Source: Schmidtea polychroa
Lineage: Eukaryota
NCBI GenBank assembly: GCA_044892525.1
Contig: CM097886.1
Span: 158,968,001 to 159,032,000, forward strand
Direction: 5' to 3'
Length of the DNA: 64,000 nucleotides
The notes beneath the pieces are model-generated. The model worked only from the letters and a program-made list of their open reading frames with translations. It was not told the DNA's origin and searched no databases. This document shows positions 1 to 30,700 of this stretch, in pieces; positions within the stretch are counted from its first letter, which is position 1, and every line of letters begins with the position of its first letter. A program made the translations under genes and the position numbers.

Positions 1-477
1 AAGGTAGCAAATTTAGCATACCGACCAAGATATATCTTGATTGGATTCAAAGAAGTAGATTCATCTTTCCAAAAAAATAACAACTTGTTTATTCAAAAGA
101 TTGGAGTTGATAATTTAAAAACAATCCAAATTCAATTAAATAGTTCTTATTATCCAATAAATAGAATGGAATTTAATATTGAAAATAATGAAAACATATT
201 CCCATATCTAAACTATATTGAAACATGTTATGATTTCAAAGTTGAACCGCAATTAAGTTTAGAAGATTTCAAAAATTTATATTCTATATTTTGTATAAAT
301 GTTTCAGACCAAGATGATCGCCTAGCCATAAATAATGTTGATGTTACACTTCATGTAACAAAGGATTCTAATTTTAAAGCTAAAGTATATACATTAATAT
401 TAGAAGAAAAGAAAATAGAAATGAAATTATATGGTGGAAAGATTTCAATAATCGAAAATGTTAGGGAAGATTCTTGA
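1..477 (+). CDS. Major capsid protein (Polinton PY / hexon-like double jelly-roll), C-terminal part; frame is open from base 1
   Basis: Frame +1 reads KVANLAYRPRYILIGFKE...IQLNSSYYP...LSLEDFKNLYSIFCINVSDQD...KVYTLILEEK, matching the Polinton MCP C-terminal pattern (P.Y.I..F; LN...YP; LS..EF...Y.LF..DLS.Q; Y.LI..E). Confidence 0.8.
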   Translation, partial: KVANLAYRPRYILIGFKEVDSSFQKNNNLFIQKIGVDNLKTIQIQLNSSYYPINRMEFNIENNENIFPYLNYIETCYDFKVEPQLSLEDFKNLYSIFCINVSDQDDRLAINNVDVTLHVTKDSNFKAKVYTLILEEKKIEMKLYGGKISIIENVREDS

Positions 478-506
478 TATAATCCCTGATATTTTAACAT
501 TTTAAA

Positions 507-1916
507 ATGTCTCTAAATAAATATTGGAGATGTGAAAGTTGTAATTGTCAAGTTACAAGACATCATAAAGCAAGTCATTTAAAAACTAAAAAACATACAG
601 GAGGTGATCTAATTCCACGAGCTGGAGGCGATTTGCAATCTTCAAAAACAACATCTTCAATATTAAAACCTTTTACTACAGAAAAATATCCAGGTGAAAG
701 ACATTTATTTAAACACAACTATACTGGACCAGGAACACGTCTAGATATTAGATTAGATGAAAATAATAATCCCAAACAAGGAGAAGAACCAATAAATAGA
801 ATTGATCAAGCAGCTTTAAAACATGACATTGCATACAATTCAACAAATCTTAGAGATAGACATGTTGCAGATGTGAATTTAATACATGATTTAAATAGTA
901 TCCAAAATCCATCAACCCAAGAAAAGATTCAAAGAGCTCTAGTTAAATTAGCAATGAAAGGTAAGATTTTCATAGGCTTAGGACACAGTCCGATCACCAT
1001 GGGTGCAAGACTTCCTAGGAAAGCAAAAGATGTTGCTTATAAAAAGATTATCGAACAAGCAGAGATTGAAAGATCCCTCGAGAGTACAGCCAAGACTAGT
1101 TTACAAACCCCAACAGAATCAGAAATAAAATATGCAAAGGAATTACACCATGAATTTAGAAAAAATAAAAAATATTTAAAAGTTCAAGTACATGAAAAAG
1201 ATCAAACATGGTCTGCAGATTTAGTCTTTATGCCCAAATCATCAGACCCTGAAAAATATAAAATAATTTTAACTGTAATAGATTTATATACAAGATTTGC
1301 TTTTGCAAGATGTTTAGAAAATAAAACAGGATATTCTATTACAGAAGCAATTGAAAATATATTTGAAGAAAATCAAAGAATCCCAAAATATTTATGGTGT
1401 GATAAAGGAACAGAATTTTATAACAAAGTTTTTACAAAGTTTTTAAATGAAAATGATATTAAATTATATTCAACAGAAAACGAAGGAAAAGCAGTCGTAG
1501 TTGAAAGATTAAATAGAACATTAAAAAATAAAATGTGGAAATATTTTACTGCTTTTGGAAAACAAAAATGGAACAATGAATTGTTACAAAAGATTGTAAA
1601 TGAATATAATAATGATGTACATAGTTCTATAAAATTAACACCTTTAAATGCTTCCATGAAGCCTGAAACCATTAAAGTGGTAAATATTGAAAATGATGTT
1701 ATTGAAAAACCAAAGTTTAAAATTGGTGACCGAGTAAGAATATTTAAATATAAAAATAAATTTGAAAAAGGATTCACAGCAAAATGGACAAATGAAATTT
1801 TTATTATAAATAAAATACATTATACAACTCCAATAACATATAGCATCTTTGATTTAAATAATGAAAAAATATTAGGTAGATTTTATAATAATGAACTACA
1901 GAAAACAGATTTTTAA
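507..1916 (+). CDS. Zn-finger + parvovirus-type phospholipase A2 + retroviral-like (rve) integrase fusion
   Basis: N-terminal CxxC..H..H; PLA2 Ca-loop HNYTGPGT and catalytic KHDIAY; integrase DDE in WSADL (codon 1218), WCDKGTEF (1401) and VVERLNRT (1503); C-terminal KFKIGDRVRI...FY..ELQK SH3-like region; no chromodomain. Confidence 0.93.
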   Translation: MSLNKYWRCESCNCQVTRHHKASHLKTKKHTGGDLIPRAGGDLQSSKTTSSILKPFTTEKYPGERHLFKHNYTGPGTRLDIRLDENNNPKQGEEPINRIDQAALKHDIAYNSTNLRDRHVADVNLIHDLNSIQNPSTQEKIQRALVKLAMKGKIFIGLGHSPITMGARLPRKAKDVAYKKIIEQAEIERSLESTAKTSLQTPTESEIKYAKELHHEFRKNKKYLKVQVHEKDQTWSADLVFMPKSSDPEKYKIILTVIDLYTRFAFARCLENKTGYSITEAIENIFEENQRIPKYLWCDKGTEFYNKVFTKFLNENDIKLYSTENEGKAVVVERLNRTLKNKMWKYFTAFGKQKWNNELLQKIVNEYNNDVHSSIKLTPLNASMKPETIKVVNIENDVIEKPKFKIGDRVRIFKYKNKFEKGFTAKWTNEIFIINKIHYTTPITYSIFDLNNEKILGRFYNNELQKTDF

Positions 1917-1927
1917 GTCGACAAGCC

Positions 1928-2734
1928 CTAAAACAAACTTTTCCATATTTCAGCTTCTTCTCTATCCAAATAAATATAATTATATTTTTCTTTCCAATGA
2001 TTATCAACAAACATATCAAACATATTCATATCAGGTTCAACATTTGAAAATAAATCATTATAAATCATATTCTTATCACGGCGATCTAATTTAAAAAATA
2101 TAAAACAATTGGAATTATTTCTTATTGAATTTTTATCTAAAGCATAATATGTTTGAGATATATAAATAACATTACAATTATTATGTCGACCTCGTGTAAA
2201 GTAACTCTTTTGAATCTCTTGATTTTTCATATTAACAACATCATCAAATATAACTAGATTCTTTTTATCTTTAGGAAGTAAATCACAATGTAAAACATCT
2301 TCAGGTTTATTAGAGAATAAAACTTGAATTGACTCCTGCCCTTCTTCACAAATATAATCATTTTTATTACTAATATCTGATTCTAAAATCTTTTCCTTAT
2401 ACCAATCAACCATATCACAAGGTTGAAAAACTTCTTCAGGACACCTATGTTGATTTTTAAAAATATCAATTATTGCTTTTTTAGTTAATTTATTTTCAAA
2501 TCCACATTTCAAAAGTTGTAATTCTGGTTGATTTATGGTTGTAGAATAAAAGATTAAATTATTATAATCTAAAAAATCATCTTCAAGTAACATTCTCAAA
2601 ACAAGTACATTCTTTCCACATCCAGAAGAACCAACAATTAATAATCTAAAATTATCAGGAAATACTTTATTATTAAATTTACTCTTATGTCTATTTAAAA
2701 TTGGTTTCCAAATTATTGGACTTCGTACATCCAT
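1928..2734 (-). CDS. A32/FtsK-like DNA packaging ATPase (likely start at 2734; ORF is open to 2773)
   Basis: Walker A GSSGCGKN, Walker B VIFDD, and the A32-type FTRGRHNNCNVIYISQ motif. Confidence 0.92.
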   Translation of the reverse strand: MDVRSPIIWKPILNRHKSKFNNKVFPDNFRLLIVGSSGCGKNVLVLRMLLEDDFLDYNNLIFYSTTINQPELQLLKCGFENKLTKKAIIDIFKNQHRCPEEVFQPCDMVDWYKEKILESDISNKNDYICEEGQESIQVLFSNKPEDVLHCDLLPKDKKNLVIFDDVVNMKNQEIQKSYFTRGRHNNCNVIYISQTYYALDKNSIRNNSNCFIFFKLDRRDKNMIYNDLFSNVEPDMNMFDMFVDNHWKEKYNYIYLDREEAEIWKSLF

Positions 2735-2749
2735 TTTATTTATTATAAA

Positions 2750-3343
2750 ATGACAACTGAAGAATCTTTGCAAGAATTAATAAATTCAAATAAAAATAAA
2801 TCAGTAGTAATTGATGGTAAAAAATATTTTATTGGAAAACATGTAAAAGAACAAGTTAGAGCGAAGCTCCACGAAGCTAAAGAAGGTGGCATTCTTCCAT
2901 TAGCAGCTTTAATACCTGCAATCATTGCTGGTTTATCAGGTGCTGCTGGAATAGCTGGAGGAATTGCAACTACAGTTCAAAAAGCTAAAGAATCTCAAAA
3001 GACAGACCTAGAAAAAGAAAAACTACAAACTGAAATCGATTCAATGAAGAAGGTAGGGCAAGCTAAAGGGGGAGTGTCCGTTGGAAAGGGTCTCTATCTT
3101 AATCCATATGAGGCGAGTCGGCAAAAGTCTCAGGGGACTCTGTCCAAGGGAAAGGGTCTCTATCTTGATCCTTATAAAGGTAGAGGTTTAAATGATTTTT
3201 TAAAAAATCAAATTTCTACATCTGAATCTTTATCTTCAAAAGATAAAGAAGATTTAAAAAAAATATGTAAATCTTTAAAGAATGGATGCCTTTGTAAAAC
3301 TGAAAATGGTAAAGGATTAAACTTGAAGCCCTTCGAACTATGA
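2750..3343 (+). CDS. Putative virion core / membrane-active precursor protein
   Basis: Hydrophobic GGILPLAALIPAIIAGLSGAAGIAGGIA segment followed by repeated GKGLYLxPY / GxGL motifs, as seen in Polinton small structural proteins. The function is inferred. Confidence 0.6.
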   Translation: MTTEESLQELINSNKNKSVVIDGKKYFIGKHVKEQVRAKLHEAKEGGILPLAALIPAIIAGLSGAAGIAGGIATTVQKAKESQKTDLEKEKLQTEIDSMKKVGQAKGGVSVGKGLYLNPYEASRQKSQGTLSKGKGLYLDPYKGRGLNDFLKNQISTSESLSSKDKEDLKKICKSLKNGCLCKTENGKGLNLKPFEL

Positions 3344-3365
3344 TACCATTTTTGATACCATTAAA

Positions 3366-4247
3366 ATGGTATATGAAGAAAGATTAGCACTTTTAAAAAA
3401 ATTACAATCAGAACAAGATAAATATAATAAAAAAGATACAACTCAACATGCTGAATCTATAATATTAAATGAGGTAATAACACAACAACAGGGGCCAACA
3501 ATTAAAGCTATAAAAGAGTTGGAAGATTTCAATGAGCAAGCAAAATTTAAAGAGTTAGAAGATAAAAAACAAAAAATAAAAGAACTAGAGTGGCAGGATA
3601 AAGAAAAAGAATCCAGTGAAAACCATCCTGAAAGAAATCAAAGAAAACGCAGAAGAATTTCTAATGTGGAAGAAGAAGAAATGTTTTTAAAAACAAAAGC
3701 TCTTAAAGTTGATCCTAAAATTAGAGATGATTTACCTCCTTCAATTAGACCCACATTTAATACTAATACTGAAGGATATCAAATAATAACAATTAATAAA
3801 CAAAACTTTACTTTATATTCAAATTCAGAAAATAAATCACGTATTCATTCACAAAATGTTTATAATAATGAATATTTAGACTTTGAATTTACAGATGATT
3901 TTTATAGATTACTTTGTGGATATTCTTCAGATGATGTTGAAGAAATTAAAAAATATTTAAATTTAATAAAATTAATAAGAGCTAGTTCTAAAGCAAAATA
4001 TATTCAAGATTTAAAGAATTATTTAAATAAAAATGAAAAGGGTTATGTTGTTACAGAGGGAGAGGGATTAATTAGTGAAGGTGGTAAACCAAATCCCATC
4101 AATCTTTTTATTGAATTAAGAAAACTATTAGCTGTAAGGAAAGCAGGACATAATAATTTAGATTCTGATATTTTAAAGATATCTAAAGATTTGTTAAAAC
4201 AAGGAATAATTTCAAAAGATAAATTTAATAAGTATACGAAGTTATAA
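3366..4247 (+). CDS. Polinton uncharacterised protein (coiled-coil N-terminus, basic NLS-like stretch)
   Basis: Intact 293-aa ORF with repeated IKELE, RKRRR, and a C-terminal L..L.A.RKAGHNN...I.KDLLKQGIIS motif recognised from Polinton ORFs. Confidence 0.6.
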   Translation: MVYEERLALLKKLQSEQDKYNKKDTTQHAESIILNEVITQQQGPTIKAIKELEDFNEQAKFKELEDKKQKIKELEWQDKEKESSENHPERNQRKRRRISNVEEEEMFLKTKALKVDPKIRDDLPPSIRPTFNTNTEGYQIITINKQNFTLYSNSENKSRIHSQNVYNNEYLDFEFTDDFYRLLCGYSSDDVEEIKKYLNLIKLIRASSKAKYIQDLKNYLNKNEKGYVVTEGEGLISEGGKPNPINLFIELRKLLAVRKAGHNNLDSDILKISKDLLKQGIISKDKFNKYTKL

Positions 4248-4269
4248 ATACGAAGTTTTAAAATACAAA

Positions 4270-4734
4270 ATGACTCCTTCAATATTAGATTTTTTAAAAA
4301 CATTTGGAATAAATGCAAAATCAAATTTTGATTTAAAAGATTATGCAAATTATTTAAATTTAAAAATTAAAATATTAATGAATGATGAATTATCAAGTCT
4401 GGAGAGTCCCCTGAATATAATAATCAATTATCAAAATTCAAATGAAAAAGGATCTCATTGGGTTTGTATATATAAGAAATCTATCTACTTTGATTCTTTT
4501 GGGATTAAACCTACTAAAGAAGTTGAAGATTATCTCTTGAGGGGTTCTCCGATTGATTCCCCAAATGGTTATACTTTTAACTCTTTACAAGTTCAACCTT
4601 TGAATACTAAAATATGTGGTATTTTAAGTTTATATGTTTTGTATAGATTGAATAAGGGAGAGGGAAAGGGGCATACGCAGGATTTTGAATCCATAATTCA
4701 AGAAATTTATAATGATCTAGAATCTCTACTATAA
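4270..4734 (+). CDS. Adenain-like (C5) cysteine protease
   Basis: GSHWVC (His), YFDSFG (Asp), QVQP (oxyanion Gln) and ICG (Cys) in the adenain order. Confidence 0.92.
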   Translation: MTPSILDFLKTFGINAKSNFDLKDYANYLNLKIKILMNDELSSLESPLNIIINYQNSNEKGSHWVCIYKKSIYFDSFGIKPTKEVEDYLLRGSPIDSPNGYTFNSLQVQPLNTKICGILSLYVLYRLNKGEGKGHTQDFESIIQEIYNDLESLL

Positions 4735-4782
4735 GGATTTTTACTATAAGGATTTTTACTATATGAATTTACTACTAAAGAA

Positions 4783-5547
4783 ATGGAGCTTCACAACCCT
4801 CCGGAAGATAATTTAAAAAAAATGGTAAACATAATGTCAGATAAATATTCAAGAACTTTATCTATAAATTCAAAAGAATCAGAGTTTACTATAAACTTTC
4901 AAGATTCAATTAAATTAGATCAAAATTTAAATTATGAATTGGGGCTATTATGGTTTTGTGCTTATAATACTATTTTTAATATAACTAAAGATAATAATAA
5001 ATTTACTATTCAAACTCGTGATGGGCATAAACCAGAAATTATAACAATAGAACCTGGGGCATATGAGATAAAAGATTTAAATGATATACTTTCTAAAAAA
5101 ACAAATGAAGGTATTAAAATTAAAATGGATATACCAACTTCAAAATCTGTAATGACTTTGAAGAATATAAAAATTAGTTTTTTAGATAATTGTTTCTTTC
5201 ACACAGTTTTAGGATTTAAACCCATGGATATAACAATAAAAGAAGATAAAATAATAACATCAGAACATATTATAAAAATAATAAATACAAACACAATAAA
5301 TATTCATTGCGATTGTATAACAGGTTCTTATAATAATGGTAAACAAACAAATGTTTTATATTCCTTTCCCTCAAACACAGTTCCTATGGGATATAAAATA
5401 GTTGAAAGAATGAATCCTCCAAATTATTTACCTTTATGTAGAAAATATATAATGGATATTAATTTTAAAATTCTTAATCAAGAAGGAGAATTGATTGATT
5501 TTAATGGAGAAGAGATTTCAATGTATTTACATTTGAAACAGGTTTGA
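4783..5547 (+). CDS. Minor capsid protein (penton, single jelly-roll)
   Basis: NTIFNI..NNKF, I.IEPGAYEIKDLN, VLGF, INIHCDCITGSY.NG....VLYSFP, Y.PL, I.NQEG.LIDF.GE motifs typical of Polinton minor capsid proteins. Confidence 0.85.
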   Translation: MELHNPPEDNLKKMVNIMSDKYSRTLSINSKESEFTINFQDSIKLDQNLNYELGLLWFCAYNTIFNITKDNNKFTIQTRDGHKPEIITIEPGAYEIKDLNDILSKKTNEGIKIKMDIPTSKSVMTLKNIKISFLDNCFFHTVLGFKPMDITIKEDKIITSEHIIKIINTNTINIHCDCITGSYNNGKQTNVLYSFPSNTVPMGYKIVERMNPPNYLPLCRKYIMDINFKILNQEGELIDFNGEEISMYLHLKQV

Positions 5548-5571
5548 AGATTCATTTTAAATTATTAATAA

Positions 5572-6582
5572 ATGAGTTCTTATATTCCATGTAATAGAGG
5601 TGGTGGAACAATAAAAACAGGGTTTAATACAGAAGAAATATTAACTTTAACAGAAAATAAATATATTAATGAAAGAGGTGATTCAATGAAGGGAGATTTA
5701 AATTTAAATGGACACAAGATAAAAGAATTATCTTTTCCAACTGATGAAGCTGATGCAGTTAATAAGAAATATGTAGATGGTGTTAAAAAATATACTGATT
5801 TAACAACAACAAGAATTGAAAGTTCATTAACAACAAAAATTGATTCAATGGAATCAAAGCTTAATAATATCGAACAACGATTTAATGATAAATTTGACAA
5901 GTTACAAAGTCTGTTAACTGAACAAGTTGTAAAGTTAAATACTGCTATATTAAATTCTAAAGATAAACAAATTATGAATACTAAATTTAATACAATATAT
6001 AAAATAATAAATGAGATGATTACATCATTTAATAAAAGAATTTCAAATTTAGAGTCTCATGAAACACACATTAACACCACACATAGTATTAGAAAAAGAG
6101 CTGCTGAATTAGAACAGAATAAAACATTATTACCCCATACATATAAACATTTTATAGAACCAAGTTTAATAACAACAAACAGTAAAGAATGGGGTGTTTT
6201 TATGGTTGTAAAAATTATTGATCCTTATTTCTTTTTGTTTGATGATGATAATGAAAGAATGAAATGGTTTGTGAAATGTGATTATAATAGTAAGCTTGAA
6301 AAGGGTGATGTTATAATGACTAGTTATGATTTACCACACGGAGATTGGTATGTTAATACTCATTCACATGGACTACATAAAGTTAAAAGTAAGAATATTC
6401 ATTTTTCTAGTTCACTTGTACAATATATAGATTTAATATTTTATGAAAAAAAGGTTGATGTTGATGAAGTTCGTAAAGCATTGAGAGAATTGTATAAAGA
6501 TATCCTCTCAACAAGAGTTTCTTTTGATATCCGAGTATTGGTGCCAGATGGTGCTCAGAAGAATAAAGTCTTATTTTTTTAA
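5572..6582 (+). CDS. Putative fibre/spike-like structural protein
   Basis: MKGDLNLNGHKIKELSFPTDEADAVNKKYVD motif, of the kind seen in phage tail-fibre and Polinton proteins, then a heptad-like coiled-coil region and a globular C-terminus. Confidence 0.55.
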   Translation: MSSYIPCNRGGGTIKTGFNTEEILTLTENKYINERGDSMKGDLNLNGHKIKELSFPTDEADAVNKKYVDGVKKYTDLTTTRIESSLTTKIDSMESKLNNIEQRFNDKFDKLQSLLTEQVVKLNTAILNSKDKQIMNTKFNTIYKIINEMITSFNKRISNLESHETHINTTHSIRKRAAELEQNKTLLPHTYKHFIEPSLITTNSKEWGVFMVVKIIDPYFFLFDDDNERMKWFVKCDYNSKLEKGDVIMTSYDLPHGDWYVNTHSHGLHKVKSKNIHFSSSLVQYIDLIFYEKKVDVDEVRKALRELYKDILSTRVSFDIRVLVPDGAQKNKVLFF

Positions 6583-6590
6583 TTATTAAA

Positions 6591-7187
6591 ATGGAAGAAG
6601 TAAGAGAAGAAAAAATTTACCCAGAATTGAGATCATCAGGATATTATTCTTCCAAGGCCTCGGCTCCCACAGAACTTGAAATTATGAGAGTAAAAGAATT
6701 TAAATCAGAAACCTTACATTTACAAGATTTATTAAAGCATTATAAAAAAATTAAAAATAGATGGAATAAAGGGAATACAGTTTTAAAGGTTATAGGTTAT
6801 TCTTTAGGATTTGCATCTGCAATATTAACAGTTATTTTACCCATAACTTTACCAGTTGTTACTCTTGCACCTGTAATACTTGGAAGTATTTCTGTGGCTG
6901 ATGGTTTCTTAACTGAAATAGTTTCATTATCTTATACTTCTAAAAAGAAAAGTTTATATAGAGAAGTTTGTTTATCAATAGAATTAGGAATCTCTAAATT
7001 ATTTTTATTTCAATTAAAAGCTTTGGAAGATGGAATCCTGACAGACGAAGAAATAATGAAATCAAATCAAATAATACAAGATATAAAGAATGAGGTTATA
7101 AGATTAAAAAGGGAGGGCATGGTGGCTAATGTTATAAGTAATAAAAAAACATCTCGAGAAAAATGGTTAAAGAATTCTTACTTATAA
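6591..7187 (+). CDS. Polinton putative membrane protein with paired hydrophobic helices
   Basis: IYPEL...ASAP N-terminus, basic KHYKKIK stretch and a long hydrophobic segment VIGYSLGFASAILTVILPITLPVVTLAPVILGSISV. Confidence 0.6.
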   Translation: MEEVREEKIYPELRSSGYYSSKASAPTELEIMRVKEFKSETLHLQDLLKHYKKIKNRWNKGNTVLKVIGYSLGFASAILTVILPITLPVVTLAPVILGSISVADGFLTEIVSLSYTSKKKSLYREVCLSIELGISKLFLFQLKALEDGILTDEEIMKSNQIIQDIKNEVIRLKREGMVANVISNKKTSREKWLKNSYL

Positions 7188-7281
7188 AATGGGTGTATTT
7201 TTAAAAACGTAGATCAGGTTGCTATAGTTGCTTAAATTAATTGTCGACATTTTATTATTAAAAAATTAAATATCGTTGGTT

Positions 7282-10200
7282 TCAGTTATGGTTGAAAGCC
7301 AACCTATGAATCATTAATTTATGATCTTTAAATTCTTTATCACTTAGACCTTTTATATATTCAGGATCAGTATTAAAATATTTAAGTTCTAAACATATAG
7401 GATTAAAAACTTGAGAATATAAAGGTTTCTCGATTTCTCTCTCGGGATAAATGATTTCAACATTATAAATATCAAGATCAGTAATCTTTGTATCATATAA
7501 CTTATTCAACTTTTCTAGATTTTTTATTATAGGGATTAAATTATTTCCAATAGGTAGAGTTGTCTTTAAATCACTTAGTATGAATCTCTTATCATCATAA
7601 TTTGATAATGATACTTTTTGAGATTCTATCAAGTGAATATCATGGTTTTCACTTTTAAGTTGATGTATTTCATCAATTTTATCTTTATGATTTGGATTCA
7701 ATGTATCTATATAATCTTGATGAGAAAGATTCTTTGCCACCACTCTCTGTATTCCTTTACATCTGTTATCCTTTACAGGTTTTTCTTCTTTAGGAAATAT
7801 AGGATATCTATGTGTAATGGTTTCTTCTGTTTCTGGAGTTTTAAATATAAATGATCTAGTTATAAATTCAGGGTTTCTAAATGTTTCGTATGAATATTGT
7901 TTAGCACGAATAAATATTCCATTTTCTATAGGAGTAAAAGGTTTTTCATCTTTAAACGAAAATAGTTCTCCAGATGAATTTATTAAATTTGAAAGTATAG
8001 GATTTTCTTTCATATCTTTTTGTAAATCATGAGTTCTTATTGTTAAAAACATTGAATCTGTATCCATTGCATGCATTGATATATTTGCTCCGTATATAGG
8101 TTGTAAGATGTTATAATATGTTTCATACATTTGTAATTTTGAAAGTTCTAAAATTGTAAACCCTATAAATATTGGTTTGTTATATGTTTTCTCATAATTT
8201 TTTAATTCTACTGCAGTAAGATTTTCAGAAAATACTTGTGCGTTTTTAAATGTAGGCTTTCCTAGCATGCGATTATAACGCTTAATATCTTTGGTAGTAT
8301 TTGTTAGGAGTTCAATATGAGTATATTTATCAACATTCTCCATTGTTTTCCCAAAGACTGAATTGTTTAAAATTTTATAATTATTATCTTTAAAAAGATT
8401 ACCTTCTCTTTTTGCAATGTTTCGGCACCTAATGTTCTCCTCGATAAAAGCTTTCATGAATGGAGCTTGTTTAAATCTTATGACACTATGAACTTTTTTT
8501 AATATCATTCCTCGTGAGAGATAAAATTGGAGGAGTCTATAGTGACAAAGATAAAACCTTCGATCTGTTTGATCACAAAGAAGTTTCATTGTTGGAGGTT
8601 TATCTTGTGAGATTTGCCATTCAGAAAGTTCGTTGATATCAATCTTTCTTCTTATGGGAGCTAAAGGAAAATATCTTGTTCCTGATTTTATATCATCTGG
8701 ATAGTCGAGGTCGCATTCTATAAAGTAACCTATTGGAGAATCTTTCGATGTTGAAAGTATTTCTTTCATAAGGTCATCTGTTGGGTTCTCTATTTCAGTG
8801 AAATCACCCATTGGTAAAAATTGAGTCATAATTCCTGAATATAAAGCTGTTGCATCTATATAAAGTATAAATATAGGATTTTTCATTGTTTCTAATAATT
8901 CTTTTAATTCCTCATTGTTAATTTTCATATATGGATCATCAGGGTGTTTAGATAGTCTTCGGCTAGTAGTTATTGCATTTCTAGCTTTTATTTCTCTATT
9001 CCCCATTACTGAAGAGACTCCTCCTCTAATGTTTGTTTTAATTTGGTTAAACATATCGAGGTTAGTTAAATGATCTATAATTTTATCACCTTCTTCTATA
9101 TTTGAAGTCCAAATGGTATATAACATAGTATCCCAAGCTAAAGAGGGTGCAGTTATATAATTATAAGGTTTAAGAACAAAAGATTTTGTAAATTCTTCAA
9201 AGCAATCTGCTAGAATATAAACATCCAAGGATAAATACATACTTGTATATTCTCCTAAAGTTTTACACTTGAATAATTCCCACATTTTATTTGCTCGAGA
9301 ATATTCTTGATTTGTAATATGATTTTTTTGAAGTTGTGAATAGAAATCTTCTTGGCTAGGAAGACTTGTTTCATTATATCTTTCAAACGAGTCAACATAG
9401 TCATAAGGATATATTCCTTTTGCTAAACATGTAGGATATTCTTCTAGAGGAATATTATTTTTTTCCAAGAATTCTCGAGTGATTTTAAAATTTTCTGGTT
9501 TCATTGTTTTTGCTACTGCATCTAAAGACATTTGGAGAAAGTTTAACGAGTCTATAAATTTTAATTTTCCATATTCAATTGATTTATATTTTTCCTTTGT
9601 TAAGCCGATAACTTTGAAAGAGTTTTTAGCATTTGCTGCGAGGTGTTTAATAAATAGATGTATGTCATATCCAAAAAGATTATGAAATATAACAGGTATA
9701 AATTTAGGAGTATGGCAATTAAGATTGCAATTTTTATGAGCTGCTCCTCGATAATTATTTTCCTTTTTTAAATGATCATGATCTATAACTTTTTCATCAG
9801 GAAGAATATTCTGTTTACACATCCAACAGTTGGAAGTATTTTCATATTCTTGTTGTTGTTGATTAGAAATATTTTGAGGATACTTTGTTTTTAATATTTT
9901 AAATATTTCATGTTCTAGATCATTTATATTTTTAGTAAAATGATTCAAGACTTCTTCAGGGGTACCTCCTAGAATTGAATATTCTCTAGATTCTATGAGT
10001 TCAGGATAATTACTTTTAAATAATAATTTATAAGCAGATGGTAATTGTTTAGTTTTTTTAACACTATTAGGTTTATTTCTTTTTCTTAGAAAGGCTTTCA
10101 TCCTCTCTGGTTTCATCTTCTCTCCTGAGGAGTTCCAGGAATCCATGAGTTTATTTTTTTCTATTATTTTTAAATATTGATAAACCAAATCTTGTTTATG

Positions 10201-11602
10201 GTTTATAGATTCAAAGTCACCATAAAGAACTCCAACTGTTTGTAGTAAATTTGAAAAGTTTTTAAAATACATCTTGGGATTATTAGGCATTTTAATTAAA
10301 GCTGGATCATCTTTTTCACAAAATCTTGTATGTTTAATCATAGAGTTTTTAGTTGTTGAATAATGAAGACATCTTTTACATGTTCCTCCTCCACTAGTTG
10401 GATTCTCTGGAGATGTAAAAGCTTGAAAGTTTTTTTATTAAAACATAATGTTGATTATTTTGTTGTTCCAAGATTAAAAGATATATCTCGTTGTCCTGTG
10501 CTCCGTTATCCTTGGTTCCACTATCTGAAATATAAATTGGAATAATTTCTTTCCCTATAACATGTTCATAAATATTAAGTTTAAGATTATTTAATTTTTC
10601 AAATTCTGGAATGTCTTCTAGTTTCATTGGGTGTTTGAATCCTTTGGGAAATATTAATTCATTTTCATATTGTTTGTATTTTGAAACTCTTTGGGGATTT
10701 GTTGCTTGAGGATGTAAATGTGCAAGTATTGACCAGATGAAACATTTGTTATCATTATTCTGTACATTTATAACATTTTTAGATTTAAAGGGTGTAGGAA
10801 TATAAGATTTAGGATTGGGTGGTAATCCTCTCCAATAATCAATCACTAAAGTTTGGAAAGAGTTGAATACTAAGTTTGAATCTCCTAATTCATTTTCTAC
10901 TTCCTCTTGTTTTGCTTCTGCTGCTTTAATTATTTCTTTGATGGTTTTATCAAATCCTTTAATTGAAAATAAATATTTAAAAGGTATTCCAATTTCAACA
11001 TCTAAGGGTGTTGTCTTTTCTTCTGCTCCTCGCCAGTATTTTGCTTTGATTATAATTTTATATTTTATAACATTATACCTTGTCGGTTTATAATTTTTTA
11101 AAGCTTCAGTGAAAGAATTTTTAATATTTTTTTTATTTTTATTTATATATTCTCCAGGAGTTGCAGGCCCATTAATTTTTAATTGAAATTCATCTATATG
11201 ATTAAAATTATCCCAGTTATATTTTTCTCTTTCAACATGATCAGGCTCTCCTTCTGAATGACATTCCTCATCGTCAGAATTTTGTTTTTTATTTTTACAT
11301 TCTTTTATATGTTCTAAATAATAGAAATTTAGTTTTGTTGAAAAGTTACAATGAGGACATGTAAATATTTCTCTATTTTTCCCGATACAATTTTCAAAAT
11401 GTTTATTATATCCAGAATGTAGAAATCTTCCTTTACATTTAAGACAAAGTTTTGAATTTGTATCATTAAGATTATTTTCTTTTAATAAATGAGCTTTCGA
11501 TTTTAAGTGAGAAATTAATCCAGTTTTATTTTTAAAAACTTTATTGCAAATATTACAATTCATTTTTAGAAAAAAATTTTTTATTGGATACCCTGTTTTC
11601 AT
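7282..11602 (-). CDS. Protein-primed DNA polymerase B (pPolB), split by a single +1 frameshift near 10417-10436
   Basis: Exo I GDFES, Exo II FHNLFGYD, Exo III YLSLDV; polymerase motifs YIDATALY, KILNNSVFGK, MDTDS. ORF 10394-11602 carries the pPolB N-terminal SYIPTP...INVQNNDNKCFIWSILAHLHP...HYVLIK block. The downstream frame continues ...GTCKRCLHYSTTKNSMIKHTRFC. Confidence 0.93.
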
Positions 11603-11669
11603 TTTATTTTTTAAGATTTATATTATTCATTTTTTATAATAAAAATTTAAAAAATGACAAAAAACCCAA

Positions 11670-11752
11670 ACCTTGATGGCGCAGTGGGCTAGACTGACAC
11701 AGTGGTTCAAAATGCTAGCGGTTCAAATCACATCTGAGGTTAGTTTTTTTTT
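11670..11752 (+). ncRNA. tRNA-like (tRNA-Trp-resembling) Pol III small RNA gene, copy 1
   Basis: A-box TGGCGCAGTGG 11677-11687, B-box GGTTCAAATC 11720-11729, 72-nt body with acceptor-like stem ACCTTG/TGAGGT, T9 terminator 11744-11752. D- and T-stems do not pair, so it is not a canonical tRNA. Confidence 0.7.
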
Positions 11753-11904
11753 CAACATAAAAAATAATATTAAAAATTTGAAAATAATATTGAAAATAGT
11801 GTGGGTATCTTATATTTATAAAGTACTTGTATATTTTATTTTATTTATTTTATTTTATTTTATTTTTTTATAAATTAAAAATTTAAAAAATGACAAAAAT
11901 TCAA

Positions 11905-11987
11905 ACCTTGATGGCGCAGTGGGAATAGACCGGCACCGTGGTTCAAATGGATAGCGGTTCAAATCACATCTGAGGTTATTTTTTTTT
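11905..11987 (+). ncRNA. tRNA-like (tRNA-Trp-resembling) Pol III small RNA gene, copy 2
   Basis: A-box 11912-11922, B-box 11956-11965, 73-nt body, T9 terminator 11979-11987. Confidence 0.7.
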
Positions 11988-12151
11988 CAACATAAAATAA
12001 TATTAAAAATTTGAAAATAATATTGAAAATAGTGTGGGTATCTTATATTTATAAAGTACTTGTATATTTTATTTTATTTATTTTATTTTATTTTATTTTT
12101 TTATTAATTTAATTATTTTTTAAACATAAATATGAAAAAAAAAATATTGAA

Positions 12152-12523
12152 ACGGGTGATGGTGGCGAACCGGTAATTATCGCCACCTGTCTTTCGAACA
12201 CCCCCGGATCGATTCTTTAATGTGCACATTTATTTCTCAGTTGTTTTCGGACCTCTTTCGAATTCGCTTTCGAATTCATTTGTACTTTCGAGCAGCACAC
12301 TTAAAACGCCGATGAAATCGTATTCGAGCGAGAAGCGAATAATAAGGTGTGCTGCTATTATCGGATTGATTCTGATGTATGAGTCTGGCCAGCTTGTATA
12401 TTGGAAGAGATTCGATAAACGAAAGAGGTTGATAAATAAAAAAAATGATCCGGATCAAAAAAAACTGTTGAGGGGACAGTGAAAAAAAAAAAAAAAATAC
12501 CACTGTCCCCTCAGAGCAGTTTT
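12152..12523. other. GC-rich nested inverted-repeat (hairpin-forming) region, probably within the Polinton TIR
   Basis: Perfect complementary pairs: 12161-12168/12180-12187, 12204-12210/12447-12453, 12251-12260/12420-12429, 12291-12300/12347-12356, 12321-12326/12336-12341 and 12469-12481/12501-12513. Also a 12-bp palindrome at 12219-12230. Confidence 0.85.
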
Positions 12524-12807
12524 ACTATTTTTCATTTATTTTTTAATTTATATAATTTAAAATCAATAATCTGATAAAGATCAAATAGCCCTCTAACTTT
12601 TTCATAATGCCATTTTCTTTTCTATTCTCTTTTTAGTTTGAAGCTTTTGAGTTTGAGGCTTTAAAGATTAAAACAGTTAGAGTCATTAAGGGTGGTTGTT
12701 TTCAAAATATAGGGTTAAAATACTATAAAAGTATAAGTTTTAGGTTGTTTTTCTAATAGCTTAAGTGATTTGGAGGCATGTTTTTGTTGGGGGGCTGTTT
12801 TGGTTGG

Positions 12808-18878: not shown

Positions 18879-21491
18879 TAGGGTTGTCAAGTGTTAATCA
18901 TAAAAAAAGAGAACATTATAAAAATTATTTTATTCATATTAATTTTTTTTTAAATTGTAATATATACTAAAACAAATTGCACTTCCAATTCATTTGCAAA
19001 TAAAAAAATAAGTCAATATAATTTAATCATCTTCATCCTCTTCTTCAGCATCTTTTTCATTATATTTATCTACACTGCTAATTTGGTTTAAATGTTTTCC
19101 ATTTTCTTTGATTTCTTGATAAAATTTAGTGCATGTAATATCTTTATAATTATACACGACGCTCAAAATACCTCGAACAGTTGAAATTTTCAATTTATTT
19201 CTTTCCTTAGTCCACTGTCCGCTGATCATTGAAAATATTCTTTCGACATTGGAATTTTGACCAGGTATTGCAAAAAAAATTCGCAAATTTTCAAAAATTC
19301 GGAATGATATTCGACAGTATTTTCTTTAAAATATTCTTTCCATTTCAAGCAGGAAATCAAATTTTTAAAATTTTAAACATTAAGATTTTTTTCAACAAAT
19401 ATTTTTAAATTACAAAACTGATCAAAACATTTTGCATCATCTACAATAATATTTTTGGTGGCAAGAAATATTATTGATTTTTCAACTTCATCCCATGTTG
19501 GAAGCCTATCCAATTTCATCCAAACAAAGTTATTTAGATTTGATAATTGATTAGTCCACAATTGTAAATATTCTAATGATTTTTTATAGCAATTCATGCA
19601 ATTTAAATTGAATTTATTTATTTCACTGTGCAATTCCTTTTCTTCAATTTCAGATAAAATAGATTTCACTTTGATTGGTAAAAATGATTCGCTATATCTA
19701 TGTCTCAATGTTTCTGTCAATGAGTTTATTGTAGCCATTACTTCAAGCACAGAATTTTGCTCAGCTTCAATTTCTAAAGTTTTTCCATGAAACACATGCA
19801 TTAGTGAACTTGCAAATTCTAAATAAGCTTTGCTAAAATCGTTTTCAAAAAACAATTTTAAAATATGTGGAGAGTTGTCGAGTGATAAAAAATATGCTTT
19901 TAAAGCAGAATAAACTTCCAGAACCCTCTTAACAGCAGGATAAAGTGATAACCAACGCGTTTTTGAGTGTTTTAATAACGATTTATACTGAATGTCTACA
20001 AATTCGCAGAAACTTTTCAACGATTTAGTCCTTATGGTGTAAATAGAAAAATAGTTATACAGTTTTACAATTATTGATTCTAAGTCTATTGTCATTAAAT
20101 CAAATCCATGCTGCGCGGAATTATGAACAATATGAGATGGACAACCAATGCCTATCAAATCCTTTTGAAATTTAATTTTTAAATGGCTGTAAACATTATT
20201 CTTCCCAGTTCGTCTCAATCCTCCAAAATTGGTATTGCAGTTATCTGCAGAAAATGCAATACATTTGTCTACAATATTGTATTTTTTTAAACATGTATGT
20301 AAATGTTCACTTATTGTTTCTGATGTTTCGTTTGGCAAAGAATATAAATCGATCATTTTTGTTAATATGCCACTATTTTTTTCAAAAAACTGAATTACGA
20401 CTGGAAACATTTTAATTGCACCATGATTACTACCATCAGTTGAAACTGATAAGAATGATATTTGTGATAATGAATGCATTATATTTTCTATACAATATGG
20501 AGCAATGACGTTATTGGCGATTCATTTTGTTTTTGTCTTTCCAGATGAAATCCGTTTAGCTACTTCTGAATCATCAAACATTTTTGCCAGCAGTTTGTTT
20601 GTACAAACGGTGGAGTTATAACTATAATGATGCTTTAATGTGTGAAAAGCTAAAGTTCCTTCAACAGCTGATACTTTGTGATCCAGAGCTGAAATTTATT
20701 TTGTAAAAATATCACATACGGATTTAGAACTAGCTCCTATACGAATGGTCTGTGTATGTTTATTTGAAGCTACATGCTGTTCCAAATCGTATTTTCCTTC
20801 GTTTGCGACCGAAACGGTTGTGTTGCACACCGTGCAAATTGCCTCCGACTTCGAATTCGGTGTTGGTTTAAAACATTTAAATTTAGCTCATAGTTCTTCA
20901 CTAAATAAGCACTTTCGCTTACTCATTTTGGAGCTAAGAATTAAAAAATCAAATAATATATCACTATCATGTAATTGTAAGTAATAGCTTTTTTACTTAC
21001 ATGTTTATTTTCACAGAAAATTAATAAAGTCAATTGCTATTGCAACTGAAAATATAGTCAGAAATTCCGAATACGACTGATAAAAGTTTTTTGTTTATTT
21101 TATTAAATAAATTACCAATTAAACGCGATGTCTGAAACAGAATAATTTATCGATATGTAACATATTGTTTTGTCAGGGTGAAAAGTGATAAATTATTCAT
21201 GGATTGCTAAGCTTTCTTTTGTGCACGTATTTAAATTTAGGACATAAAACTGCATGTGTGCAAAGTATTTATGTGAAACAAATTTTTAGGCGCTCAAAGG
21301 TTTTATGCGCCTAAAAATATGCTAAAAATTCATATACCAAAAAAATTACTAGTTAATTAAGCAAATATTATAATTAAAATTTGGCGAAATAAAAAAAGAG
21401 AACAATTTTGAATATATGTAAAAAAGATAGAGAACAAAAGAATTATGTTTAAAAAGAGAACATGTTCTCTTTAAAAGAGACCTGTTGGCAA

Positions 21492-27747: not shown

Positions 27748-30700
27748 ATAGCAAAAAAATAAAAGTTTTAAACTTCACCTTCTCACCCTTCCAACTTGTT
27801 CCAATGTTGAAAAGAAAATTTTCTGTGAAATATTTTCTGAAATTTCTCGACATTTAGAGGTGGCCCAACAATCTAGAAGTTTGAAGTACAAATATTTTAA
27901 AGTGGTTTTTATACGTTTTTGCTACTTGTACTGTGTTTGACGAAATTATGAGCAGCAAAATTATCTCATTTTTATTACAACATTAACTGTAGTGAAAACA
28001 GAGACATATTTGACAATAAACACACCTAACAACCGAAGCAGTTTACTAGTTTAGTTTATCACTCGGCCTATAGTCACTAGCCAGTCAAAGTCGACAAACT
28101 CAAAAGTCGAACATTACTATCAGTCACACAGTCAGTACACATTAGGGTAAAATAACAACAGTGCATGGAACATGGAAACTGAAAACATGGTGATTGAACA
28201 CAGTTTTTAGTCGTAACTACTAATTAAGATCAGTCCGAGTTTGATAGTTAAGGTGTCGTTGGCGTAGTTGACATGGCCATCATGAGACCGAATTTGCTGC
28301 AGTCTGGAAACAGCCGGCGATGTTCGCTAACGACATGCAACATGAATTGAAGCTTTTCCTCATCCTTGGTTAGCTTTTTATTGTAGTCCTGAATGAGGGC
28401 TACCCCTCTCTCAGCTCTGTCATTCACAACAGCCAATCCTTTAACAGTTCTCAGTGCACATTGGTATGTTTCATCCTCATCCCATTCTGATGGATCTTTT
28501 GACATAAATGACGTCTGTAACTGCAGAAGACGAAACATGGTCATTGAATTGGCTGTGCAGAACTGTTCGAGACCCTTGCTGTTTGTGAAGGCTGATGTTT
28601 CCACTCTGGGACGTTTAGGTGGATGCTCAGGTGCAGCATTCTCCATGGCTGCAAGAATCAGCTTCTTGGTTTCAGCTGGAACTCTGGAGTTAAACAGAGC
28701 GAGTGTTACCAGCTCTTCTGAAATATACCACAGATGCAGTCCCAGCTTTTTGCTGGTTACAGATGAAATGTTTACATCGGGGTATTCAAGGAGCTGTCTC
28801 ATCAACAGGAAATCATTCAATGGTGCATTTATTGCCAGAGGTGCTGTTATCCATACTCTGAGATAGACAAGCACACCAAATGCAGCAACAGCAGTGATTC
28901 CCTTCAGCTCACTCTGTGTCATCTTGAATTGTGCTCTGAAAAGCCACATCTTGATACTGTACAGCACTTTAGCCAACCACCTTGCTCGATGCATTGCACC
29001 TGGAGACTGAAAGTGAATCCCCCTGGAAGGAGCCTGGCCAAGGTAAATCATAGACAGTTCCAGGAACTCCCGGTAATCATCTCGTGGCTGCTGCACTTCA
29101 AGTTGCATGCGAGCAAATTCCAATAATTCATTTCGACTATTAGCAATGAGATTGTCGATGAATGGATCCGTTTCTGCCGGCTGGTAGTTGTCACGATCTA
29201 TGAATTTCCAGTGCTCCTTGAATCTTTTGAAGATTGATATGTCAGGGCTTGATGAACCTCGTAGCATTTGGTCAAATGCTGCACCGACAATAAGTTCCAT
29301 GATGTGATGACGACAGGCCAAGTATAGGAGATCTTTGGCCAACATCTGTTGAATTAAGACACAAGCACCTTGCTTATCACCAGTGTTTGAACTTGTTGTG
29401 TCAAAACACAAAGCCACAACCTGCTTTTCGATGCCCCATTGCTTTATCTCGTTGACCACGGCAGTAGCTTGGGATTCACCAGTTCCAGATGACAGTTTTG
29501 GAACTGCAAGCAGCTGTTCACAACCAACACCTGAGATGAGAATTGGTAACCTGTCGACGTGTTCTCTAGTTGTCAAATCTTCCAATAACTTTCCATCCCA
29601 GTGGACAGTCAGATGGTTTACAGATAGAAATTCTGATTTCAGCTGTGATGCTGCAATTGTTCTAGCTTTACACCTGGCTCGGTGGATTGAGTTCCTGCTG
29701 ATGTTGAGGGAATCAACATTGTGACCAAGGCTGGATGCTGTTTCACACAACACATAAACAGTATTTCTGGAGGATGTTTGTGTTCTGTCCAGAGCTGCCA
29801 TTAGCCCAGGAGTCAATACATCAGTCTTAGCTTTTTTGGCACTGGCTTTGTGATACAGTCAGCAGGATCTGTTGATGAGGATGCAACAGGTTTATAATCA
29901 TCACACAAGACAATCTGCTCTTGGTCATGGTCACTGTCTTCACCAGATGATGATTCGAGAGTTGTCAAACAAGCACTGATATTCATTTCATCTACTGACC
30001 TTTGCCGCCGCCTTGCTTCAGCTTGTTTGCGTTCACCAGCTGCTCTAGCTTTACGTTCAGTAACTTTATCCCGGACACCAATGGATCCTGGACGCCCTTT
30101 TTCTCTCTGGCGTAACAGGAATGCCCTGTCTTCTGGGTTGCTAATGATAGTTAGTGCATCCTGATGGGCTATGTCGAACAGATCTTCAAGATGAGAAACA
30201 AATTCATGCTCCTGTTTTTTGTGAGCTTCACCAGACCTCGACTTGTGTTTTTGGAGACCCTTCCATTCATAAAAGACTGATTCAAGCTTCTGAATGCAGT
30301 GCTGTTCTGCTCTTATTGGATTGCTTGATTTTTTCCAGAACTCCATTATCACGTTGATTGTCAGTTTACTGGCTTCGCGAAGAGTCATTTTTTCTACTTT
30401 ATGTAGGTGTAGAAAGTACCCAAATGTCTGATAATACGATGGCAGCTTTGCACCAAGAATTTCAGGAACATATGATTTAATCAAGTAAACATTATCATTA
30501 GATCTTGTTTCCATTCTGTTAAATCTGAAACACAATAACATGGAGAGTGGAGACGATTAGGTTAAGCAAAACACTAGGCATAATTGAATGAACAACTGAA
30601 AAATTTTAAATTTGCTGTATAGTACAAGAGTACATTTAACATTGTAAAATGCATTCAACAACGATGTGTTTTTGCATGTAATTCAGCAAAGTAAAATACT

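Follow-up and report, generated by a model that had tools for sequence, protein, structure and literature searches.

We analysed a stretch of 64,000 nucleotides of Schmidtea polychroa DNA (the window; positions 158,968,001 to 159,032,000 of contig CM097886.1, forward strand), which opens inside a Polinton/Maverick element (adintovirus, Polintoviricetes) that carries genes for PolB, an rve integrase, a capsid protein, an A32 ATPase and an adenain-like protease (Table 1; the arrow marks a putative cleavage point). Its right terminus is probably near 12,526, where we assume the Polinton terminus rule to apply. The polymerase gene consists of two ORFs whose frames differ (break between 10,341 and 10,394), and is a single 1294-aa ORF in a related element (L002); the copy in the window, therefore, may be non-autonomous.

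The adenain type of the protease is apparent from a profile of 12 aligned rows, which matches adenain 1avp (E 1.5e-6) and in which H63, D75, Q109 and C116 are invariant, and from the structural model, whose best fold match is adenain 1nln (E 3.4e-4); the sequence on its own gave no match in the PDB. The ORF named as a probable penton has 23-38% matches in related elements. The pX-like protein carries repeated GKGLY-type motifs, and its number of GG/GxG sites is not above that in shuffled sequence (p 0.11). ORFs of this type without PLA2 are also found in L001, L002, L015, L019, L022, L034 and L036, and a pairwise comparison with the PLA2X of L003 gave no match. Elsewhere in the window, the long ORFs at 19373-20521 and 28248-30556 look by eye like transposases of DNA transposons; the region of the latter is G+C-rich (~44%), and the surrounding scaffold is A+T-rich and gapped.

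Table 1. Features of the element, with window coordinates and the basis of each assignment
Feature	Position	Strand	Basis
Double jelly-roll capsid gene (window opens inside it)	1-477	+	PF21738, E 3.3e-9
PLA2-integrase fusion ORF, 469 aa	507-1916	+	ORF list, Pfam, AlphaFold, fold alignment
Basic N-terminal leader, aa 1-41, pI 9.8, zinc-finger-like CxxC...H...H	507-629	+	Pattern by eye
Upstream putative protease site, G40-G41↓D42	624-632	+	Conservation; second GGD copy at 600-608
PLA2 module, aa 42-158	630-980	+	PF08398; YTGPGT 720-737, H106-D107 822-827, Y110 834, D122 870
Junction K153-x-x-h-G157-L158↓G159, putative maturation-protease site	963-983	+	Column conservation; cleavage inferred
Variable linker with non-conserved ATG (999-1001)	984-1139	+	Distance counts; pLDDT <50 at aa 159-170
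Retrovirus-like DDE integrase, ELH start, C-terminal beta-barrel	1140-1913	+	Pfam, fold match; D238 1218, D299 1401, E333 1503
A32-like packaging ATPase	1928-2734	-	PF04665, E 2.9e-8
Stand-alone pX-like core protein, 7 GG/GxG sites	2750-3343	+	Adeno_PX, weak, E 0.042
293-aa ORF of no assigned family, GEG and GG near C-terminus	3366-4247	+	ORF list, Pfam
Cysteine protease of the adenain type (clan CE), with H63-D75-C116 and Q109	4270-4734	+	Alignment, profile, fold
Probable penton (minor capsid) gene	4783-5547	+	Name inferred from gene content; no Pfam match
Protein-primed DNA polymerase B, main part	7282-10341	-	PF03175, E 3.5e-13
Probable N-terminal polymerase part, different frame from main part	10394-11602	-	Matches front of L002 PolB ORF
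Right-end region, ~235-bp tandem duplication, probable terminus ...ACT	11618-12526		Polinton terminus rule

A phospholipase A2 and an integrase in one frame

An earlier note on this DNA, made from the letters and their translations, had claimed that a phospholipase A2 (PLA2) and a complete DDE integrase share a single 469-aa ORF. The ORF has no internal stops, and the Pfam scan, the catalytic residues and the fold alignments all uphold the claim. In the scan, a check that the note had proposed, both PF08398 (PLA2-like; aa 66-147, E 4.3e-9) and PF00665 (rve; aa 229-321, E 4.5e-12) scored above cut-off. The calcium loop YTGPGT begins at aa 72, and Y72-G76, H106, D107, Y110 and D122 are all present, as is the complete integrase triad D238, D299 and E333. 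Judged by its residues, the PLA2 is of the parvovirus type, and its activity is predicted to be calcium-dependent; a profile of the module matched AAV VP1 and plant PLA2, weakly (E 0.0013 for AAV VP1). The AlphaFold model of the protein (82 sequences, pLDDT 85, pTM 0.57) has two separately folded parts, with low confidence (pLDDT <50) at aa 32-43 and 159-170. Residues 56-159 of the model aligned with rice PLA2 2wg7 at a middling score (Z 7.5, rmsd 3.8, 89 residues), and residues 208-469 with the foamy-virus integrase 4bac (Z 21.5, rmsd 4.0, 248 residues); the Foldseek matches listed for the whole model were integrases and one transposase only. Of the zinc finger that the note had placed at the N-terminus, the CxxC...H...H pattern can be seen by eye, but it has no Pfam match above cut-off, and the leader that holds it is not conserved, varying among the matches listed from 1 to 184 aa with unrelated sequences.

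The fusion is a real, lineage-wide arrangement in one branch of animal Polintons/adintoviruses. A search with the full-length protein gave 569 matches; among the best 120 (37-88% identity), for which the length filter and the ranking favour fused proteins, 104 have both Pfam families and 112 have the PLA2 H-D-Y-D and the integrase D-D-E in one chain. The remaining eight lack all or part of the PLA2 core (six) or have one changed residue (two), and the individual PLA2 catalytic residues are retained in 113-115 of the same 120. Fused relatives, which the note had suggested looking for, thus exist. Those among the matches listed form 25 groups at 60% identity and 10 at 50%, and include P0089, a gene model from the coral Oculina patagonica. 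Both families are also found together in three ESM Atlas clusters (184, 111 and 72 members; scores 0.82-0.85, to be taken as leads only); one of them was automatically named 'Phospholipase A2-like/Integrase core domain-containing protein'. Annotation pipelines otherwise call the fused proteins 'transposase' or 'hypothetical', thereby hiding the PLA2. L001 (1-1403 and 3582-4643) is an element with the fused gene, and a tblastn search with the window's PolB gave no match to its polymerase; by this comparison, elements with another type of polymerase carry the fusion as well.

Sequencing-run contigs from four runs of four studies cover all 30 bins of positions 300-2300. Of the 40 differences listed, out of 117, 29 fell in the ORF, of which 15 were synonymous, 14 non-synonymous and none a stop, and the listed ORF indels add up to multiples of three. 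Loose contig ends at 958 and 976, read by eye, belong to copies with G-A-G at the junction. In run X1, 25,401 contigs of very high total depth fall on 300-2300, which suggests that copies there are numerous and diverse, depth being no measure of copy number.

Conserved glycines around the phospholipase

The PLA2 runs into the linker through IFIGLG (aa 154-159). Among the matches listed, K153 is found in 119 of 121 rows and G157 in 120, when neighbouring columns reach 35-73. By alignment column, a second glycine follows G157 at +1 or +2 in 107 of the best 120 of 569 matches (at +2 only in 92, at +1 only in 10, at both in 5, at neither in 13); as a control, each of seven conserved integrase glycines had no such row among the matches listed. 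In the same 120, the residue at P4 is Lys in 70 (Phe in the window) and P3 is hydrophobic in 118. Some relatives repeat the motif in tandem in their linkers. The GxG of the calcium loop (GPG) is also kept, in 85 of 107 rows among the matches listed.

The linker is variable: the distance from G157 to E212, 55 aa in the window, ranges among the matches listed from 6 to 76 aa, with one of 253 and a median of 18. The note had described it as relatively GC-rich, and indeed positions 960-1030 have 45% G+C against 23-32% in the two domains, which places them in the top 1% of 70-nt windows of 1-11600. The ATG at 999 that the note had pointed out is in frame, with a purine at -3 and G at +4; it is not a conserved start, because a Met is found anywhere between the junction and ELH in just 22 of 115 fused rows, and it falls in a short insertion (aa 160-165) that is gapped in 116-119 of 121 rows (both among the matches listed). 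Most of these integrases, therefore, lack an independent start, so that in most relatives the enzyme can be made only within the long protein, or truncated. In L003, the sole unfused insect-type element seen, the PLA2 is on the other strand, and the integrase has its own Met ~10 residues before ELH.

A second conserved glycine site, GG↓D, precedes the PLA2 and was absent from the earlier note's account. Among the matches listed, GG or GxG lies 15-50 aa ahead of the calcium loop in 81 of 90 testable rows, against a chance of 0.118; of the 121 rows, 25 were too short and 6 had no PLA2. The site is in the upstream low-confidence stretch of the model. When 12 parts of the element's proteins were compared with shuffled sequence, the part comprising leader, PLA2 and linker alone had an excess of GG/GxG (p 0.025, uncorrected). 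The amphipathic moment after GG↓D, an uncontrolled measure, has a median of 0.46 in 64 rows and is 0.13 in the window's protein, and we claim no amphipathic helix there.

Related loci and other partners of the phospholipase

We compared 42 related loci, of which L013-L042 had been chosen for having both domains close together. Both domains are present in 33: eight have one open frame, four one frame with a stop, 20 a frame change, and one has the domains on opposite strands. At the junction itself (33 rows including the window), 15 are in frame, 6 are at -1, 5 at +1 and 7 are not scorable; L002, one of the shifted rows, was mis-paired by the pattern. L022 and L034 are in frame at the junction yet have a stop just after the motif. 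The shifts fall in runs of 7-8 A, and the window's junction has no A-run. In four loci (L014, L017, L019 and L021) the PLA2 is free of stops, the frame after the A-run stays open for at least 300 codons, and the gene has no other break. None of the 12 tested has a hairpin downstream of the A-run (z -1.27 to +1.52), the near relatives keep the frame, and many shifted loci carry further broken genes. With shifts in both directions, in A-runs, without a hairpin and alongside other broken genes, decay is the more economical reading.

A search with the PLA2 only gave 3013 clusters, of which the best 150 were classed automatically, many of them probably fragments or decayed copies. In these, the PLA2 is followed by the integrase or its start in 36, by an end within 25 aa in 69 and by another tail in 30, and 15 stop before the junction; GG/GxG is present at the end of the PLA2 domain in 84 of the 134 that reach it. 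In P0333 a single chain holds the PLA2 and a protease of the adenain type (Peptidase_C5, E 0.0011) that is 41% identical to the window's; P0249 has, by eye, a pX-like tail, and P0299 a DUF5679. Since PLA2s that stand alone or have other partners keep the motif too, it did not evolve to release the integrase, and the downstream glycine site is, on this comparison, part of the PLA2 cassette.

On a PLA2 tree of 62 hand-picked rows, with few columns and unsure 'stand-alone' labels, the fused rows are not one clade: the label changes 13 times, with at least 7 changes forced by well-supported branches. The window's PLA2 is sister (99/91) to P0167-P0169, short proteins ending at or just past the motif. 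The integrase was probably joined behind the cassette more than once, or with repeated splits. When viral contigs were searched for stand-alone PLA2 loci with the single PLA2 sequence and with P0168, there was no match. The distances of the PLA2 are correlated with those of the integrase (r 0.70, n=107), which carries no support because the same would hold for any two genes of one element.

A putative virion precursor

We think it likely, though well short of certain, that the fusion protein is a virion precursor that the element's protease cuts into leader, PLA2 and integrase, packed together. The analysis supports the note's reading, a polyprotein that brings both enzymes into the virion and may be cleaved at GLG by the viral protease. 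The precursor would be packed into the particle and cut after G41 and between L158 and G159, giving a basic leader of 4.7 kDa, a PLA2 of 13.3 kDa and an integrase of 36.8 kDa (computed masses). The 13-kDa PLA2 would then breach the endosome, the role proposed for its parvovirus counterpart, and the integrase of 37 kDa would accompany the DNA into the nucleus. Being fused, the enzymes would be supplied 1:1, and the integrase would need no packaging signal of its own.

Known systems provide precedents for parts of this model; what follows on them is taken from the accessible text of the sources cited. The mavirus protease MVP, of clan CE, cuts GG↓X and GX↓G, including GY↓G (PMC6048507), a specificity that both G40-G41↓D42 and G157-L158↓G159 match and that cleavage at GL↓G would, thus, fit. 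Mavirus virions contain the integrase (MV02) together with cut MV13, a predicted hydrolase with a candidate site GK↓G (Born et al. 2018, PMC6048507) that has also been termed a lipase (PMC3671162). The element in the window shares the clan CE protease and, if its precursor is packaged as proposed, the pairing of integrase with hydrolase or lipase in the virion; however, MV13 is an alpha/beta hydrolase whose gene is separate from that of the integrase, and mavirus is a protist virophage. Adenain, a homologous protease, has (M/I/L)XGG↓X and (M/I/L)XGX↓G as its cleavage sites, and a cut at IVGL↓G trims a basic peptide from the C-terminus of pVI, its membrane-lytic substrate (Mangel and San Martin 2014, PMC4246237). 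As proposed for the element in the window, a membrane-disrupting precursor is cut at GL↓G in adenovirus, and we claim no homology between pVI and the PLA2; in contrast, adenovirus has no integrase, and the strict M/I/L that adenain wants at P4 is not found at the junction, which has Phe in the window.

The nearest known relatives of the PLA2 module are in adintoviruses and parvoviruses. PLA2X of the Alpha (Mayetiola-class) adintoviruses (Starrett et al. 2021, PMC8502044) and 'CAP' of Sf Mavericks (PMC5803895) have the same PF08398 PLA2, are from the same kind of element and have the same proposed role in entry. In the accessible parts of these sources, the PLA2 of PLA2X has a pX-like domain attached and the integrase has its own gene, whereas in the window there is no such C-terminal domain on the PLA2, the integrase follows instead, and the pX-like ORF is separate (2750-3343). 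More generally, Polinton PLA2 genes are described in the available text as PLA2X or CAP, apart from the integrase (PMC8502044, PMC5803895, PMC4642659, PMC3671162), and the note's statement that the two are usually separate genes agrees with the accessible text of PMC8502044 and PMC5803895. The chromodomain of adintovirus integrases, as described there, was not detected by Pfam in the window and is present in some fused relatives. The calcium loop and HDxxY align with those of AAV VP1; the parvovirus VP1-unique domain is tethered to a capsid protein (PMC4642659, accessible parts), rather than to an integrase as in the window.

The fusion is apparently common in databases and undiscussed in the literature searched, so far as the text was accessible. 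It is not mentioned in the accessible parts of PMC11161782, PMC11296320, 10.1101/2023.08.22.554363 and 10.1101/2024.03.25.586562, or in those of 10.64898/2026.06.19.733378, 10.64898/2026.07.28.741253 and 10.64898/2026.10.13.758929, and Repbase, supplements and subscription papers may mention it; the coral polintovirus paper (PMC11131425) has, in the part available, no occurrence of PLA2, phospholipase or fusion. Nor does the literature searched, in its accessible parts, hold a report on the substrates of a Polinton protease.

The widespread fusion, the glycine motifs lying on both sides of the PLA2 in low-confidence or variable stretches, and the intact adenain-type protease all point towards a cut precursor. 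Against it stand the residues at P4 (Lys or Phe, not M/I/L), the 13 of the best 120 of 569 matches without a second glycine, and the last PLA2 helix, which AlphaFold extends up to residue 158, so that a helical site would need unfolding for cutting and G157 may simply be a helix cap. The GPG of the calcium loop shows, moreover, that a GxG can persist for structural reasons, and PLA2s with no integrase behind them keep the motif. The integrase also follows the PLA2 in only 36 of the best 150 of 3013 clusters, only 8 of 33 loci have one open frame, and the polymerase gene of the window's copy is in two pieces. The modelled helix, the P4 residue unlike adenain's and the missing second glycines would equally suit a fusion that is never cut, or only at the upstream GG↓D, the integrase being tethered to an active PLA2 through entry and the downstream glycines capping the helix and beginning a flexible linker; that the motif is also kept where just a short tail follows would suit it, too. 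We nevertheless hold this unlikely, as the placing of the second glycine (+1 in 15 rows, +2 in 97) is the either/or predicted by a GG↓X / GX↓G specificity, some linkers repeat the motif in tandem, and one glycine would suffice for a cap. It is less probable again that the fusion is a tolerated by-product of adjacent genes joining and splitting, in which the existing PLA2 site renders the join harmless and co-packaging brings no gain. The scattering of the fused rows over the small tree and the fusion of the cassette to a protease, a pX-like tail and DUF5679 speak for such an origin, but the fused forms cover identities of 37-88% and in most cases have no separate start for the integrase (matches listed), the 'stand-alone' labels are unsure, and this account would itself still imply cleavage.

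Two further explanations concern the reading frame. Separate frames might be joined by ribosomal or transcriptional slippage at the A-run after GxG in part of the family, the window having the fixed in-frame form. We consider this very improbable: 11 of 26 scorable rows are indeed out of frame at the junction (the mis-paired L002 among them), and the four loci with long open frames past the A-run could be read in this way, but the shifts go both ways, the tested loci have no downstream hairpin, near relatives are in frame, many shifted loci have other broken genes, and the window has no A-run at its junction. We give hardly any credence to a one-off stop loss or assembly error, with the integrase starting at ATG 999, although the context of this ATG is favourable and no contig piece among those listed spans 975-1001. 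The one-off readthrough that the earlier note had named as the outcome fatal to its reading did not materialize, 112 of the best 120 homologues and the three ESM Atlas clusters being fused; these include P0001, which at 88% identity is fused with no Met in its linker, and the ATG itself sits in the rare insertion. As a general account readthrough is, thus, refuted by the fused homologues, and would at most add a minor leaky start in the window's copy.

The cut precursor bears on how animal Polintons form infectious particles, if they do so at all. Two predicted cut sites in a conserved precursor make for a specific, testable processing model, which, if true, would show how an entry enzyme and an integrase reach a new cell together. 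That an entry enzyme has long been kept on the integrase also argues for these elements spreading as viruses. It is possible, though we hold it somewhat doubtful, that the PLA2 precursor is more broadly a modular, protease-bracketed delivery cassette (GG↓D-PLA2-GX↓G), a counterpart of pVI and a packaging tag for whatever follows. If so, a DNA virus would have a retrovirus-like polyprotein route for loading its integrase, and the cargo would be the integrase in the window's branch and a protease or a pX-like peptide in others. Five further proteins (P0274, P0284, P0251, P0335 and P0352) carry after the PLA2 tails without a Pfam family above cut-off, and the tails of P0274 and P0284 are alike.
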